Source of the DNA: Escherichia coli
Lineage (GTDB): Bacteria > Pseudomonadota > Gammaproteobacteria > Enterobacterales > Enterobacteriaceae
Reading direction: 5' to 3' (one strand)
DNA length: 64,000 nucleotides
NCBI GenBank assembly: GCA_002099625.1
Contig: GCA_002099625.1_4857.1
Part shown: in pieces, positions 1 through 4,553 of the stretch
Position numbering within the stretch: position 1 is the first letter of the stretch
How the letters are laid out: the number at the start of each line of letters is the position of its first letter
Made by a program: the position numbers and the translations under genes
The notes under the pieces: generated by a model
The model's database searches: none
What the model was told of the DNA's origin: nothing
What the model saw: the letters and a program-made list of their open reading frames with translations, nothing else

Positions 1-208
1 CACCGCCCGGACACAGTTCAGAACGCCCGTAGTTGACCACGGCAAACTCACCCTTCTCCACTGTCACGACTGGTTCATCTTTGTCGCTAAATTTTACAGG
101 TGCGTCGGTTTCCCACATCGGTTTATACTGCGGGAAGTCCTGAATGGTAAAGGCGTTTACTGGCGCAGTAACGCAGAGTATAAACACAGCTAATACAGCA
201 CGCATCAT
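1..208 (-). CDS. secreted or periplasmic protein with N-terminal Sec signal peptide (3' end lies outside window)
   Basis: Minus-strand ATG at 208 (tandem ATG ATG) with GAGGA about 6 nt upstream; translation MMRAVLAVFILCVTAPVNA/FT... has a hydrophobic core and AXA-type cleavage site; reading frame open to position 1. Not in ORF track because partial. Confidence 0.45.
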   Translation of the reverse strand, partial: MMRAVLAVFILCVTAPVNAFTIQDFPQYKPMWETDAPVKFSDKDEPVVTVEKGEFAVVNYGRSELCPGG

Positions 209-210
209 AT

Positions 211-687
211 CTAGTCCTCTTCCAGATAGGGTAGAAGCCAGTCCATTTTCTCCAAACGGTGAATCATGTTGCGAGTGTTTGGCGATACCTGTAAGGCATC
301 ATGGAACTGTTTTTTGAAGTGATGCCAGTGATAAGAGAAAGGTTTTGTTGGATAGCCCGCTTCCTTGAGAACTTCTTCCCACTCCAACCTCTGGATAAGG
401 TGCTCGTCGACCAAAACCTCAACTAAAGCCTTCCAGGCACTCCGACGAAAATGCCGGGACAACCGACGTTTTAAATCGGCATAACTTTTTCTTTTACTGG
501 ACCGTATTGCTGGTGATGTCTTACTGTGATGAAAAGAACGTCTCGTAAGATTCAGAATCTTAACAGGAGTGCCCCTAAGCGAACTGTCTGCAATATTCAG
601 TTCATGCTGAGGAACAAGCTCCACACGGCGGATGACGTTTATACGGGTTCCATCCGTATCTCGTGTTTCGTAAGCAACACGTATCAT
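211..687 (-). CDS. hypothetical basic (Arg/Lys-rich) protein
   Basis: 158-aa ORF, ATG start, tightly packed between neighbours; Arg/Lys-rich middle region. No recognisable motif. Confidence 0.4.
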   Translation of the reverse strand: MIRVAYETRDTDGTRINVIRRVELVPQHELNIADSSLRGTPVKILNLTRRSFHHSKTSPAIRSSKRKSYADLKRRLSRHFRRSAWKALVEVLVDEHLIQRLEWEEVLKEAGYPTKPFSYHWHHFKKQFHDALQVSPNTRNMIHRLEKMDWLLPYLEED

Positions 688-704
688 TATACACTCTCGC
701 TCGT

Positions 705-1190
705 TTAGACGAAATGACCTTCTGCCATCGAAAGAAAAATGGGAACGCTTTCGGCGTAATGTGTTAAAAGCTTTTCCTCCGGTGGCGTGTGTGACGAAAT
801 AACATTGTAGTTCGTCATACGAAAATACCGTTGGCCGTCAGCAGCAATATACCATCGGTCAATCTGGAAGCCTTGTTGGTGAAAGAATCCTAGCGCGGGA
901 ATGTTGGTCGGGTGAACACGACAGCTGACGTGTTTACGATCGGAGTTCTGCTGAAGATACTTAAGCATAAATCTGCCGACACCGCCCCGGCGCGATTCTT
1001 CGGGCACAACCATATAGACCAAATGGCCAGGTTCCCATGCCATGATTCCCCGCACGATATCATCCTCAACAAACATCGTGAGTTTAATAGGCTCCTCACG
1101 GATACTGTTTAAGTCGCGCACCCATTCAACCAGTTCAGGATAAACATTCGCGGGAATCTTATCCTCGACCACATTAATAACAAGCATCAC
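705..1190 (-). CDS. GNAT-family N-acetyltransferase-like protein
   Basis: 161-aa ORF; segment RRGGVGRFMLKYL fits the GNAT motif A pattern (R/Q-x-x-G-x-G/A) used for acetyl-CoA binding; ATGA overlap with upstream gene. Confidence 0.45.
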   Translation of the reverse strand: MMLVINVVEDKIPANVYPELVEWVRDLNSIREEPIKLTMFVEDDIVRGIMAWEPGHLVYMVVPEESRRGGVGRFMLKYLQQNSDRKHVSCRVHPTNIPALGFFHQQGFQIDRWYIAADGQRYFRMTNYNVISSHTPPEEKLLTHYAESVPIFLSMAEGHFV

Positions 1191-1825
1191 TTCTCTCCAC
1201 TAAGCAGGTATCTGGCTTCTGCCAATGACAGGGACGGTTTTAACAGCATGTGTAGCGGCAGGATTGTTGAACGGTGAAACTGTGCCGGTGTTTTTGCCAG
1301 GTGTTCCAGATAGCGATTGACCGACATTTCTTGCCAATCGATAGTAGGACGAACCCAACTTATCTGTAACCATTTCCCCAATGAGACGTCACGCTTACCG
1401 CGTGGCATAATTATACTTAACTTGTACCCGTGGTCAAACTGTCGCGGTGGATGACCCGGCACCCAAGGAACCTCGGGACCTAGCACATCTGTGAGAAACC
1501 CTTCTTTAATTAACACATTTCTGATGGTAGCGAATATCCGTCCTCGTTGCACGGTGATCTCTTTGACATGCGCCATGGCATTTAGTTTACGTTTGGTAAT
1601 CGCAGTAGAGAGTGCACTAACAAACTGCCCTTCAACATACGGCGCGTTCAAACAGCTACGAAACGGCACGACGTAAAACGCTTCCCACAACACTTCTTCA
1701 ACCGCCGACAATAACAACGCTTCTTTCTCAGCTGCAGTAAAATCCACAGACAACATTTTGGTAAACGAACCTAATATAGTGCTAAACGGTAGTAGTACAG
1801 ACCGTTGACGAAATTGTAATTGCAT
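1187..1825 (-). CDS. hypothetical protein
   Basis: 212-aa ORF on the dominant coding strand, tight packing; no motif recognised. Confidence 0.5.
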   Translation of the reverse strand: MQLQFRQRSVLLPFSTILGSFTKMLSVDFTAAEKEALLLSAVEEVLWEAFYVVPFRSCLNAPYVEGQFVSALSTAITKRKLNAMAHVKEITVQRGRIFATIRNVLIKEGFLTDVLGPEVPWVPGHPPRQFDHGYKLSIIMPRGKRDVSLGKWLQISWVRPTIDWQEMSVNRYLEHLAKTPAQFHRSTILPLHMLLKPSLSLAEARYLLSGEK

Positions 1826-1872
1826 TTTTATATTCCTTTTGGTCTTGCTTACACAGTAATTTACGTAGACGT

Positions 1873-1916
1873 AATAAAAAAAATAAGAAGCCTCTTCTCC
1901 CGGAGGAGAAGAGGGC
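1873..1916 (-). terminator. intrinsic terminator downstream of 1921..2493
   Basis: GC-rich hairpin GCCTCTTCTCC-cgga-GGAGAAGAGGGC (1890-1916) followed on the minus strand by a T-rich run (plus-strand A-run 1873-1889). Confidence 0.6.
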
Positions 1917-1920
1917 TTAA

Positions 1921-2493
1921 TTACTCTTTAGGTGCGGTAGTCTGTTGCTTCGCGTTGCTCTTATTCAGCTTATACTCAACGACTTTGGCACCAATGGCCA
2001 TCGAATTGTAAGCAAGCGTCTTAATCGGCCATGTAAAGAACACGGCCTGAGCAAACAAAGGTAAGAGCGCCACAATCAACACATCCGTCAATTCTTGCGG
2101 ATAGTGCAGGTGTGTATCCCAGGCCATTGCTGCGGAGACCAGTACGGTGGTAAGCACCAGTAAAGCGATAAGGACTTTCTGAGGACCTTTTAAATTCGGC
2201 CACAGGGTCAATAACGTTTCTTTGGCGAGCTTTTCATCCATACTCTCCACAGCTGCTTTCGCCTGCGATTCAAACGTCTTCGCCATATTCCCAACCTGTT
2301 CAAGAATCAGGGGGCGCAATGACGTAAGAATCACGTTAGCGGGTTTAGTAACATCAATTTCGACATCACTTCCCAAAGCGGTCTGAGCGGCTGCTTTTAG
2401 TCGGGTGCTCTCTTCCAGGCTTAATTTATTGGTGCCCGCCTGGATAAGAACATCCAACACATCCGTCGAGGCTTCTTGCAAAGACTGCGACAT
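1921..2493 (-). CDS. hypothetical integral membrane protein
   Basis: 190-aa ORF with two or more hydrophobic helices (LIALLVLTTVLVSAAMAW; VLIVALLPLFAQAVFFTWPI). Confidence 0.5.
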   Translation of the reverse strand: MSQSLQEASTDVLDVLIQAGTNKLSLEESTRLKAAAQTALGSDVEIDVTKPANVILTSLRPLILEQVGNMAKTFESQAKAAVESMDEKLAKETLLTLWPNLKGPQKVLIALLVLTTVLVSAAMAWDTHLHYPQELTDVLIVALLPLFAQAVFFTWPIKTLAYNSMAIGAKVVEYKLNKSNAKQQTTAPKE

Positions 2494-2495
2494 CG

Positions 2496-3146
2496 CTATT
2501 TCCTCCGGCGTCTTCCTTTCTGCTTACCGGCCTTAGCTTTAGGAACTTTAACCTTGGGCGGAAGGAGACTATTTAGGTTTAATAAGTTGACCCTGACGAA
2601 GATATTACCCACCGCCACGGCATCGATACTGTGTTCATCCAATACCGATAAGTCGCACCGGGTATGGTTCGCGTAGAGTTTGGTCACCGCTTGTTGCATA
2701 TGCGATTTATCTGTACCCTTTGCTTCCACACCAACGTACGACTTCACAATAATAGGATTAAACCCATGGAGATATTTTTCGGGAAACACGTCCCAAAGCG
2801 TTCGCCGCAACATCAGTTGCAATTCCACCCCAGATTCGTACGCTGAGAGCTTAGCTCTTCGCATGAACGGAGTTTCGGTAGCGACAAAAGTCGGCCTTGC
2901 CAGTTTTAAAAACTCACGAAAGCGTTCTTCTAATTCTACCAAACGCGCATCGCGTTTCCCTACGCACTCACCAAAAGAGCCATTGTGCGTAGGGTCCGCA
3001 ACATGAGCCGTGCCCGCCCAGACAACTTCACCTTGAGGTTGGCCAAATTCCCAGTCGATAACCGCCATCCCAAGATGGGCAGTACCGGGGTCAACAGCCG
3101 CAATCCTCACCATACTGTCGGGTAACCTCGGCTCAGGAATCAGCAT
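2496..3146 (-). CDS. ruvC: RuvC-like Holliday-junction resolvase with basic C-terminal tail
   Basis: N-terminal IAAVDPGTAHLGMAVID resembles the RuvC motif (I-x-G-I-DPG-S/T...G-x-G/A-VI); acidic ATETPF; C-terminal D-x-x-S-IDAVAVG resembles the RuvC D-x-x-DALAIA motif; tail PKVKVPKAKAGKQKGRRRRK. Confidence 0.6.
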   Translation of the reverse strand: MLIPEPRLPDSMVRIAAVDPGTAHLGMAVIDWEFGQPQGEVVWAGTAHVADPTHNGSFGECVGKRDARLVELEERFREFLKLARPTFVATETPFMRRAKLSAYESGVELQLMLRRTLWDVFPEKYLHGFNPIIVKSYVGVEAKGTDKSHMQQAVTKLYANHTRCDLSVLDEHSIDAVAVGNIFVRVNLLNLNSLLPPKVKVPKAKAGKQKGRRRRK

Positions 3147-4033
3147 CAGTTAGCTGTCCCTAAAAACCACGGTGCCGGCTGGCCGATACGGATGGTCAGT
3201 GACAGACGATCGTTGGTCTGTGCCAGGTTAGTGAACAGGGAGATGTAGTACAACGCCTGCACACCGATAGCTTCGTCGTAGCTGAACTGTGAACCGGTAG
3301 CCGACTCACCCGTTTCAGGGGTATCAACGCCAGAGCACAGCGCAATTTCAGAGATAATCGAACTGCGTGGCGTACCACGTAGAATCGCCGTCACGTTCAT
3401 GTATTCCTGAACATCAAACTCAGTCCATGGAATCACCAGGTCCGCGCCCGATTCAACATAACGACCGTCGGGGATCTCTACAGTGCCGTCATCGTCGTAA
3501 TCGTAGTCTGGGAGTTCTTTCGGTACCGGGTTCAGTTCCGCATCGGTATAGACGAAATCTTTGACGGTTTCAACACCGTTTTCGCGAGTGATATCCAGGT
3601 CAGTGGTCTTCACTGCGCGCATGTCGATACGTTTCAGATAATACGCCCAGTAATCCCGCGCGCCGATAGTTTCACGAGTACGGAAAGCGTACTGTTTACG
3701 TTGCTCATCAGATAAGTCATTATCCAATGTACGCAGTACCAATGGAACGCGCGAGAACATCCCTGACGTAATCGGGGATTTCGCGACAGGAACAACGTCT
3801 GCCACAACATCAGACTGATCAACGATGTGACCACGGTTACCCACGCACATGTATCCTAAATGCGGACGTGTAGCGCCATCGGGAACTTTCGAGGTCATGA
3901 GTTTATAAAACTCGTTCATCGTGGATTTCTGTGGGTACTGCACGTCAGCACCTGTCAATAACGCGGTCGTAAGTCGCATCGCGTTAAGAGTCACTGTTGA
4001 CAGTTTACCGTCGTAAACTTTGGTGTTAGCCAT
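3146..4033 (-). CDS. hypothetical protein
   Basis: 295-aa ORF, TAATG-type overlap with downstream gene; no motif recognised. Confidence 0.5.
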   Translation of the reverse strand: MANTKVYDGKLSTVTLNAMRLTTALLTGADVQYPQKSTMNEFYKLMTSKVPDGATRPHLGYMCVGNRGHIVDQSDVVADVVPVAKSPITSGMFSRVPLVLRTLDNDLSDEQRKQYAFRTRETIGARDYWAYYLKRIDMRAVKTTDLDITRENGVETVKDFVYTDAELNPVPKELPDYDYDDDGTVEIPDGRYVESGADLVIPWTEFDVQEYMNVTAILRGTPRSSIISEIALCSGVDTPETGESATGSQFSYDEAIGVQALYYISLFTNLAQTNDRLSLTIRIGQPAPWFLGTAN

Positions 4034-4553
4034 TTAAAAATTCTCCTGGGCGAAACCCGTCGAGTGCCCGTTTAGTTACCAGCTGCGCCAGCTTACGGGG
4101 AGTTGGGTCAACAAAAGTAATCGCAATCGTGCCTTTGAAAGATAGATGGTGCGGGATTAAGCGCGCCTCATACGATTCCATTTCCGGGGTAATCGGTTCA
4201 ACCATGATATCGTAGGTGTCAAGCTGGAGACCCAGCTCATCGACAATATACGGAACTAATTCATGGCTCCATTCTGCCGCACCCTTCGGGACTTCAACCG
4301 TTACGTCTTTAAGTAACTTGTTTAAGTCCGCACGAGTCAGGTAAAACTCTTGGGTGCCGTGTACCCCATTTACAAAGCGCGCCGCAACTTTAGACTCCAC
4401 ACCTTTAGCGCGTCGCTCTGCTTGGGTTAACGGCCACACCCCACGTGGGTTAAACTCGTAGTTATTTTCACTATACGATAACTTAAAAACGTAATTGATT
4501 CTCTCAACCAGAATCTGTTTCGGGGTTTTTGATAAATCTATACGGTATCCCAT
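4026..4553 (-). CDS. hypothetical protein
   Basis: 175-aa ORF on coding strand, short overlap with next gene. Confidence 0.5.
   Translation of the reverse strand: MGYRIDLSKTPKQILVERINYVFKLSYSENNYEFNPRGVWPLTQAERRAKGVESKVAARFVNGVHGTQEFYLTRADLNKLLKDVTVEVPKGAAEWSHELVPYIVDELGLQLDTYDIMVEPITPEMESYEARLIPHHLSFKGTIAITFVDPTPRKLAQLVTKRALDGFRPGEFLNG

Follow-up and report, generated by a model that had tools for sequence, protein, structure and literature searches.

Periplasmic superinfection-exclusion proteins are known in other phages, T4 Sp/spackle being an example, and small exported phage proteins often turn out to be lysis factors as well. Among acetyltransferases of the GNAT superfamily, a motif B tyrosine frequently, but not universally, acts as the general acid. 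For gp88 of phage SPN3US, the described GNAT protein closest to the locus presented here, the authors of the crystal structure reportedly found no broad activity, and a conserved C-terminal tail is said to provide the swapped helix of the dimer. The structure is available as PDB 7DQG, "Putative acetyltransferase" (SPN3US_0088, YP_009153382), and was published as that of a complex with acetyl-CoA (Ki et al., J Microbiol 2022, pmid 35781628). The YfjS and YafY proteins (PF20494) of the E. coli cryptic prophages CP4-57 and CP4-6 carry a small exported domain. Overproduction of YafY activates Cpx, an effect that only one other E. coli lipoprotein shares (PMC6538781).

The window, a DNA stretch of 64,000 nucleotides, can be assigned, by nucleotide comparison, to an SPN3US-like, nucleus-forming jumbo phage of the giant Salmonella phage type; positions 1-4100 share 95.6-97.6% nucleotide identity with SPN3US and its published relatives. 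The window opens with the downstream end of a minus-strand operon of four genes, the homologs of gp87, gp88, gp89, and gp90. The first gene of the operon, the gp87 homolog (1187..1825, 212 aa), is followed by the gp88 homolog, a GNAT N-acetyltransferase (705..1187, 160 aa), by the gp89 homolog (211..687, a conserved hypothetical protein of 158 aa), and by the gp90 homolog, which starts at position 208 and is truncated by the window edge. The gp87 stop and the gp88 start overlap as TGATG at position 1187, the gaps between gp88 and gp89 and between gp89 and gp90 measure 17 and 2 nt, respectively, and a Shine-Dalgarno sequence lies upstream of each start. An intrinsic-terminator-like hairpin on the minus strand (1891..1914), with a 10-bp stem that includes six GC pairs and with a T-rich tail, stands directly after the gp86 stop and delimits the gp87-gp90 transcription unit on its upstream side. 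The same hairpin is found in SPN3US, where a second terminator hairpin, in the part corresponding to sequence beyond the window, occurs right after the gp90 stop (L001 5811-5788). The overlap, the short gaps, the Shine-Dalgarno sequences, the flanking terminator hairpins, and the conserved gene order together identify gp87-88-89-90, at the level of sequence, as a single tightly packed operon. A scan for sigma-70 promoters gave matches no more frequent than in shuffled sequence, and neither Rfam nor a tRNA scan gave a match anywhere in the window. HMM searches of all ORFs of at least 50 codons in the 64-kb window detected no paralog of gp88, gp89, or gp90. The plus-strand ORFs in 1-1190, none longer than 66 aa and all overlapping conserved minus-strand genes, were judged spurious.

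Homologs of gp88 and gp90 were detected by tblastn in 64-73 phage genomes, and the differences from SPN3US in both genes are mostly synonymous, so that neither is a chance ORF. Among the matches listed, the phages belong only to the SPN3US-like jumbo clade and infect Salmonella, Erwinia, Escherichia, Cronobacter, and Proteus. The order GNAT-gp89-gp90 is retained in Erwinia phages at 44-62% amino acid identity. The original prediction had placed a gene for a small signal-peptide protein and a gene for a GNAT acetyltransferase side by side at the start of the window. Both proteins were found, each on the minus strand, but the conserved gp89 ORF separates their genes. The proposal that the first ORF had to be completed with upstream sequence was also mistaken, as its N-terminus is complete within the window and it is the last 60 aa, at the C-terminus, that are missing. 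Although both proteins are real, neither is new, the genes having been annotated in dozens of published SPN3US-like genomes, and their presence carries little weight as a discovery.

The GNAT assignment of the ORF at 705..1190, also part of that prediction, was borne out by profile searches. The ORF scored above the Pfam cut-offs for PF00583 (25.9 bits against 20.7) and PF13673 (24.1 bits against 23.6), slightly below that for PF13508 (26.1 bits against 27), and fell into the PHROG acetyltransferase family phrog_7861 (E 1.4e-78). Two starts are available, a GTG (705..1190) and an ATG (705..1187). Of these, the ATG at 1187 is more probably the true start, as GGAGAG lies 5 nt upstream of it and it overlaps the preceding stop in TGATG; the SPN3US annotation also uses the equivalent ATG. 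The protein is identical to chain A of 7DQG at 159 of 160 positions (E 2.4e-108), and SPN3US gp88 occupies the equivalent genomic position with the same neighbouring genes. The single substitution, H158 in the window for Q in 7DQG, is not expected to alter function. The sequence marks gp88 as a small GNAT-fold enzyme of the cytoplasm, essentially the 7DQG protein, and as such an acetyltransferase that is already known, with a crystal structure in the PDB.

Motif A, which binds the pyrophosphate of acetyl-CoA and has the consensus (R/Q)-x-x-G-x-(G/A), reads R66-R-G-G69-V-G71 in gp88; in an alignment of 19 sequences (A1), neither R66 nor G69 varies, and G or A occupies position 71. This motif, as R-x-x-G-x-G/A, and the GNAT fold are shared with the YjaB, RimI, and Naa-type enzymes, and YjaB, RimI, and Naa/ARD1 are the best, though distant, relatives of gp88 in the PDB and NCBIfam other than itself. 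The NCBIfam equivalog cut-offs were not reached for RimI (TIGR01575, 22.7 against 86.4) or PRK10562 (NF007853, 25.8 against 125), and gp88 differs from the YjaB/RimI/Naa type in having an additional conserved C-terminal tail, TPxEE...VPIFLSMA. A further difference lies in motif B (A-x-x-[LF]-Y-x3-G-F), where Phe102 of gp88 aligns with Tyr117, the general acid of YjaB. Position 102 is F in 18 of the 19 homologs in alignment A1 and M in the remaining one, and the near-invariant replacement of the canonical tyrosine suggests that the chemistry or the acceptor of gp88 is atypical; judged from the sequence, the change could also mean weak or no catalysis. The nearest relatives of gp88, distant as they are, include RimI and the Naa-type protein acetyltransferases, and gp88 would acetylate one specific amine, in all likelihood a lysine or the N-terminus of a protein.

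Free spermidine would be a different acceptor. Two GNATs of related Erwinia jumbo phages, phiEaH2 YP_007237670 and Caitlin YP_009292176, led to N-acetylspermidine formation in E. coli (PMC9992855), and gp88 could by analogy be an N-acetyltransferase of spermidine or polyamines and reduce the level of free spermidine at an early stage of infection. This is quite unlikely, for the active enzymes, of 154 and 155 aa, have the size of gp95, whereas the gp88-type protein of those same phages has 159 aa (P0021, Caitlin). The gp95-type GNAT is likewise small and is present in genomes that also encode gp88 (in SPN3US it lies seven genes from gp88, outside the stretch covered by the window), but it belongs to a different length class and shows no detectable similarity to gp88 by BLASTP. 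The SpeG and PaiA models of NCBIfam do not match gp88, PaiA gives a weak match for gp95, and SPN3US gp95 was itself negative in the spermidine acetyltransferase assay. The published assays concern gp95-type proteins, unrelated in sequence to gp88, and spermidine acetylation by gp88 was rejected on this ground. Jumbo phages of the SPN3US-like clade thus encode two unrelated GNATs, and the gp88 type is not the one shown to acetylate spermidine in the Erwinia-phage relatives.

The ORF at 208..1 on the minus strand encodes the gp90 homolog (phrog_5248, unknown function), of which 69 of 129 aa, the full length in relatives, lie inside the window; over these 69 aa it is identical to the protein P0030. 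Its translation begins with MMRAVLAVFILCVTAPVNA (aa 1-19, 152..208, minus strand) and continues with FTIQD at the start of the mature part, whose first 50 aa (1..151, minus strand) are predicted to be periplasmic. The positively charged n-region, MMR, precedes a 10-residue core, AVLAVFILCV (mean Kyte-Doolittle value 3.36), and a c-region V-N-A with small residues at -3 and -1, the predicted signal peptidase I site lying between VNA and F. Each of the 10 family members examined keeps this architecture, as do bacterial homologs, and homologs at 43-68% identity retain its properties despite divergence of the signal-peptide sequence itself. The small exported protein predicted at the window start is upheld by these features: gp90 begins with what n/h/c-region analysis identifies as a Sec-type signal peptide for signal peptidase I, and it would be exported to the periplasm with cleavage after Ala19.

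It is unlikely that gp90 stays in the inner membrane, whether lipid-anchored like YfjS and YafY or held by an uncleaved signal anchor. YafY and YfjS, distant relatives of gp90 (see below), are indeed inner-membrane lipoproteins, and in the Salmonella phages the hydrophobic core of gp90 includes a cysteine, Cys12. This cysteine is preceded by F-I-L, with L, I, or V at -1 across homologs and hence no small residue there, so that the lipobox [LVI][ASTVI][GAS]C is lacking and a lipoprotein assignment was rejected. The diverged homologs P0033, P0034, and P0039 moreover lack Cys12, whereas all three keep an AxA site followed by F.

Only three columns, Cys66, Gly69, and Cys89, are invariant among 21 gp90 family members. 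Cys66 falls inside the window and its partner Cys89 beyond it, and two invariant cysteines in the mature part are consistent with a periplasmic disulfide. The AlphaFold2 model of a full-length homolog (pLDDT 83.6) has seven beta-strands, and gp90 would accordingly fold as an all-beta domain of about 110 aa held by a Cys66-Cys89 disulfide. A PDB fold search with the model gave no match (best E 0.13, TM below 0.31), as did a PDB sequence-profile search with the family alignment (A4), and a fold search of BFVD returned only uncharacterised Erwinia jumbo-phage proteins. Homologs with a signal peptide were found in the bacteria Serratia and Yersinia. That of Serratia sits on a CP4-like island together with an integrase fragment, Antirestrict, RadC, and CbtA, and the island resembles CP4-6 in its YafX (72%) and YkfG (61%).

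Comparison by hhalign linked the gp90 family to YafY with a probability of 79% (score 36.8) and to YfjS with one of 88% (score 40.8), against a mean score of 11.8 (sd 2.3, maximum 18.9) in 200 shuffled controls. The shared motif is C-x-x-G-x-[FY]-Y-L-V-[ND]-x3-K-T-x-Q-P...C, with both cysteines aligned. Like gp90, YfjS and YafY are small exported domains; they differ in being lipid-anchored, where gp90 has a signal peptidase I signal and no lipobox, and identity is about 18%. SPN3US gp90 does not reach the PF20494 cut-off (12.4 bits against 27, E 0.17), and the best E value among 21 gp90 relatives is 0.044. The evidence supports gp90 as a remote relative of YfjS/YafY by sequence profile, not as a PF20494 family member; the island setting of the Serratia homolog agrees with this, and gp90 would probably be a soluble protein related to the YfjS/YafY domain that CP4-type prophage islands encode. 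The link of gp90 to the Serratia and Yersinia homologs and to YfjS/YafY is one modest new point of this analysis. It ties a jumbo-phage gene to an uncharacterised family for which activation of Cpx by the overproduced protein is the one phenotype known, and so offers a cheap and concrete hypothesis.

The best guess for the role of gp90, drawn from its predicted localisation, its faster divergence, and its distant homology to proteins of unassigned function, is that of an envelope-directed accessory protein, which might act in superinfection exclusion or modulate an envelope component or stress pathway. T4 Sp/spackle-type proteins offer an analogy, being small and Sec-exported as predicted for gp90, with which they showed no sequence or fold similarity in the PDB and BFVD fold searches. 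A part in lysis, as a periplasmic antiholin, a spanin-like accessory, or a regulator of the endolysin, would also suit a small exported phage protein, proteins of this kind being frequently lysis factors. It is nevertheless very unlikely, given an operon devoid of endolysin, holin, or spanin signatures in Pfam and PHROG and a protein that has neither a lipobox nor a C-terminal transmembrane segment. The fold matches of gp90, all uncharacterised jumbo-phage proteins, also speak against lysis, as does the presence of its bacterial homologs on a CP4-like island rather than in lysis cassettes.

The accessory, host-directed roles originally suggested for the GNAT and gp90 are plausible as hypotheses. 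In a published CoreGenes table, gp88 and gp89 are common to PhiEaH2 and CR5 and lack a counterpart in phiKZ, while gp90 does not appear (PMC5105663 supplement). A genetic system exists for SPN3US (PMC5105663). Accessory rather than core functions fit the restriction to the clade, the lack of a phiKZ homolog, and the absence of gp90 from the CoreGenes list. For gp90, this reading also fits its bacterial relatives on a mobile island and its divergence: the gp90 fragment, with 90% nucleotide identity to SPN3US compared with about 97% for gp88 and gp89, is among the most diverged segments relative to that phage.

Their common operon, with an order conserved through the clade, might suggest that gp90 and the GNAT work together as a single system in which the acetyltransferase modifies gp90 or a target common to both. 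This is very unlikely: the predicted compartments differ, the GNAT having no export signal, CR5, Phobos, and Derbicus are among the GNAT tblastn matches listed and not among the gp90 matches listed, and gp88 and gp89, but not gp90, belong to the shared CoreGenes set. With one protein predicted in the cytoplasm and the other in the periplasm, their pairing reflects membership of an operon and not a demonstrated system; the two would be co-expressed without acting as two components. Taken as a whole, the preferred account, that of a jumbo-phage operon in which gp88 is a specific acetyltransferase and gp90 a periplasmic, envelope-directed relative of YfjS/YafY, linked to it by co-expression only, has a somewhat better than even chance of being correct.

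A more far-reaching version would make gp90 a soluble, phage-adapted YfjS/YafY domain that hits a periplasmic envelope sensor or surface structure (Cpx-type signalling or a block to entry of a second phage), while gp88 acetylates one dedicated host or phage protein and both form, with gp87 and gp89, a conserved host-takeover cassette. It is speculative and rather unlikely; if true, it would give the orphan YfjS/YafY family a first function.

The two remaining operon proteins bear on another possible partnership of gp88. The gp87 homolog (phrog_8034, unknown function) gave no match in Pfam, PDB, or PADLOC, the last of which, as a defence-system search, matched none of the four operon proteins. 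The translational coupling of gp88 to gp87 through the TGATG overlap and the co-conservation of gp88 and gp89 through the clade would agree with a toxin-antitoxin-like pair of the TacT/AtaT type, in which a GNAT acetylating charged tRNA is neutralised by one of these small neighbours. Such a pair is most improbable: no DUF1778/RHH antitoxin match, nor any other in Pfam, was obtained for gp87 or gp89, PADLOC was negative for it, the PDB fold search with gp89 gave no match, and the operon of a strictly lytic phage is an unusual place for a toxin-antitoxin pair. The gp89 protein also had no PDB sequence match; it belongs to phrog_9187 (E 1.5e-75) and its 13 homologs are restricted to the clade. 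Its AlphaFold2 model (pLDDT 75.8) shows an N-terminal beta-sheet and a C-terminal helical bundle joined by a basic linker, with residues 52-60 of the linker at pLDDT below 50.

Positions 1-4100 of the window align with 23 full-length phage records, at nucleotide identities of 95.6-97.6%. Salmonella phage 1252 and Proteus phage 7 match best, and SPN3US, the type phage of the genus Seoulvirus, stands at 95.6%; all are jumbo phages of 240 kb. Genes were identified by mapping onto the SPN3US annotation and are named here after the SPN3US products. All lie on the minus strand, and the geometry of the original prediction needs correcting in this respect. They encode homologs of gp84 (virion structural protein, 3146..4033), gp85 (RuvC-like protein, 2496..3146), gp86 (hypothetical, 1921..2493), gp87 (hypothetical, 1187..1825), gp88 (putative acetyltransferase, 705..1187), gp89 (hypothetical, 158 aa, 211..687) and gp90 (hypothetical, 129 aa, 1..208, cut off by the window edge after its first 69 codons). 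Departure from SPN3US is uneven: gp86 and the gp90 fragment each keep 90% nucleotide identity, the latter with non-synonymous changes in 6 of its 69 codons, against about 97% for gp84, gp85, gp88 and gp89.

The gp85 homolog is assigned to RuvC-like resolvases by PHROGs (phrog_159, E 2.8e-38), barely touches the Pfam RuvC model (E 0.035) and is a predicted divergent jumbo-phage resolvase. The CoreGenes supplement (PMC5105663) gives phiKZ ORF140 as the homolog in the row directly above gene 86, a row that may be the gp85 gene.

The genes for gp87, gp88, gp89 and gp90 most likely form a single four-gene transcription unit, because they are tightly spaced (a 1-nt overlap, then gaps of 17 and 2 nt), have a Shine-Dalgarno sequence ahead of each start and are flanked by hairpins. 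An intrinsic-terminator-like hairpin with a 10-bp stem and a T-rich tail follows gp86 (1914-1891, minus strand), and in SPN3US a second strong hairpin, also with a 10-bp stem, lies immediately 3' of the gp90 stop (L001 5811-5788, minus strand); of the two, only the upstream one falls within the window. The order GNAT-gp89-gp90 is retained in Erwinia phages despite protein identities of merely 44-62%.

The proposed GNAT acetyltransferase was borne out. The 160-aa gp88 homolog scores above the gathering values of PF00583 (25.9 vs 20.7) and PF13673 (24.1 vs 23.6) and matches the PHROG acetyltransferase family phrog_7861 (E 1.4e-78). Its end had been placed at a GTG at 1190; translation more plausibly begins with the ATG at 1187, since GGAGAG lies 5 nt upstream, the codon overlaps the gp87 stop (TGATG) and the SPN3US annotation agrees. 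A PDB sequence search returned chain A of 7DQG, the SPN3US gp88 entry titled 'Putative acetyltransferase' (E 2.4e-108), which agrees with the window protein at 159 of 160 positions. Motif A is conserved (R66-x-x-G69-x-G/A71). Where E. coli YjaB has Tyr117, its general acid, gp88 has Phe102 (codon 882-884, minus strand); 18 of 19 homologs carry Phe at this position, an atypical active site for a GNAT. Beyond the GNAT core, the family alignment contains a strongly conserved tail, TPxEE...VPIFLSMA. This tail fits the dimer exchanging its C-terminal helix that the gp88 structure study is said to describe; the substrate range was reportedly very narrow. PMC12328618 cites that structure paper in connection with SPN3US.

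After 7DQG, the next relatives of gp88 are YjaB, RimI and archaeal and eukaryotic N-terminal acetyltransferases. All scores against equivalog models of these types fall far under threshold, so subfamily assignment is impossible; acetylation of a single specific protein is one tentative possibility. SPN3US encodes a second GNAT, gp95 (154 aa, YP_009153389 in its annotation), which lacks a PDB entry of its own. Erwinia phage GNATs from phiEaH2 (154 aa) and Caitlin (155 aa) made N-acetylspermidine, and SPN3US YP_009153389 yielded none (PNAS 2023, PMC9992855). A role for gp88 as the spermidine acetyltransferase of these phages was considered and rejected: the assayed proteins are of the gp95 type, gp88 has zero BLASTP similarity to gp95, and Caitlin's gp88-type protein (159 aa) is distinct from its 155-aa spermidine-active GNAT. 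In SPN3US, gp95 (L001 2514-2978, minus strand) lies outside the region covered by the window, seven genes downstream of gp88, and adjoins a gene annotated 'internal head protein'.

The GNAT and the signal-peptide protein had been described as neighbours; they are separated by gp89, a conserved ORF overlooked at that stage. It is predicted to comprise a beta N-domain, a basic central linker and a helical C-domain, whose helical region is invariant (HWH.FK.Q, WL.PY). Searches of gp89 by sequence and by fold gave no Pfam or PDB match.

The small signal-peptide protein itself also held up. Upstream sequence, thought necessary to complete this ORF, is not needed: the window contains the whole N-terminus, and what lies beyond its edge is the last 60 residues at the C-terminal end. 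From 208, the minus strand translates as MMRAVLAVFILCVTAPVNA followed, after the predicted cut, by FTIQDFPQYKP... A basic n-region precedes a hydrophobic core (mean Kyte-Doolittle 3.4 across 10 residues), and V-N-A precedes the cut. In homologs at 43-68% identity the signal sequence has diverged (THA, ALA or TAA before the Phe) while the n/h/c architecture and Ala at -1 are retained, and a signal peptide also opens all more distant bacterial relatives. This comparative evidence is the strongest, and conservation of architecture over diverged sequence argues that the signal peptide is functional; gp90 is probably exported, with cleavage after Ala19. Cys12 was rejected as a lipobox cysteine, -1 being L/I/V and the Cys missing from diverged members.

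Close homologs of gp90, which falls in phrog_5248 (unknown function), are few and confined to the SPN3US-like clade. It was found by tblastn in 64 phage records, the matches listed being SPN3US-like phages of Salmonella, Erwinia, Escherichia and Proteus. A confident AlphaFold model (pLDDT 83.6, pTM 0.75) was obtained for a full-length homolog (P0030) whose first 69 residues are the same as those encoded in the window; it has seven beta-strands beyond the signal peptide. No PDB structure matched this fold (best E 0.13), and in BFVD it matched only uncharacterised proteins from other Erwinia jumbo phages. A profile search across 1.84 billion representative proteins gave 22 matches, including small proteins from Serratia and Yersinia assemblies; Yersinia intermedia carries a homolog. 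Only Cys66, Gly69 and Cys89 are invariant among 21 family members, a pattern expected of a periplasmic disulfide-stabilised domain, and gp90 is likely to form such a disulfide.

Both gp88 and gp90 were already known: many genomes carry annotations for them, and a crystal structure exists for the GNAT. The sole new angle here is a link from gp90 to the YfjS/YafY lipoproteins of the E. coli cryptic prophages CP4-57 and CP4-6. The Pfam match of gp90 to their domain, PF20494, is weak (E 0.17; best E among relatives 0.044), and it is strengthened by hhalign of the gp90 profile against YfjS (probability 88%, score 40.8) and YafY (79%, 36.8). Scores for 200 shuffles of YafY, used as a control, averaged 11.8 (sd 2.3) and peaked at 18.9. 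Both cysteines align, together with a core C-x-x-G-x-[FY]-Y-L-V-[ND]-x3-K-T-x-Q-P. From these comparisons gp90 would be, with moderate confidence, a remote soluble relative of the YfjS/YafY domain and not a member of the Pfam family.

The Serratia proteamaculans homolog (L004 6001-6372, from JAEHSL010000004.1) sits on a CP4-like integrative island. An integrase fragment lies at one end, glycosyltransferase and Wzy_C genes lie upstream of the homolog, and an antirestriction gene (Antirestrict), RadC, the CbtA toxin and DUF4942 lie downstream; YafX (72% identity) and YkfG (61%) are shared with CP4-6. Of 90 E. coli lipoproteins tested by overproduction, just two activate the Cpx envelope stress response, and the uncharacterised YafY is one of them (PMC6538781). 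It is conceivable that gp90 acts at the envelope, either in exclusion or in stress signalling. An accessory host-interaction role for gp88 and gp90 is a reasonable hypothesis. Nothing points to the two acting jointly beyond co-expression: their predicted compartments differ, and CR5, Phobos and Derbicus are among the GNAT matches listed and not among the gp90 matches listed.

Across the whole window (1-64000) there were no tRNA genes and no Rfam families at the gathering threshold. In the SPFM records LR5359xx (SPFM1, 7, 8, 9, 10, 12 and 15), tblastn matches to gp88 and gp90 come in 3-7 pieces, and the lengths annotated for the proteins are unusual (112-186 aa); frameshifts or misassembly in the deposited genomes seem a likelier cause than biology.
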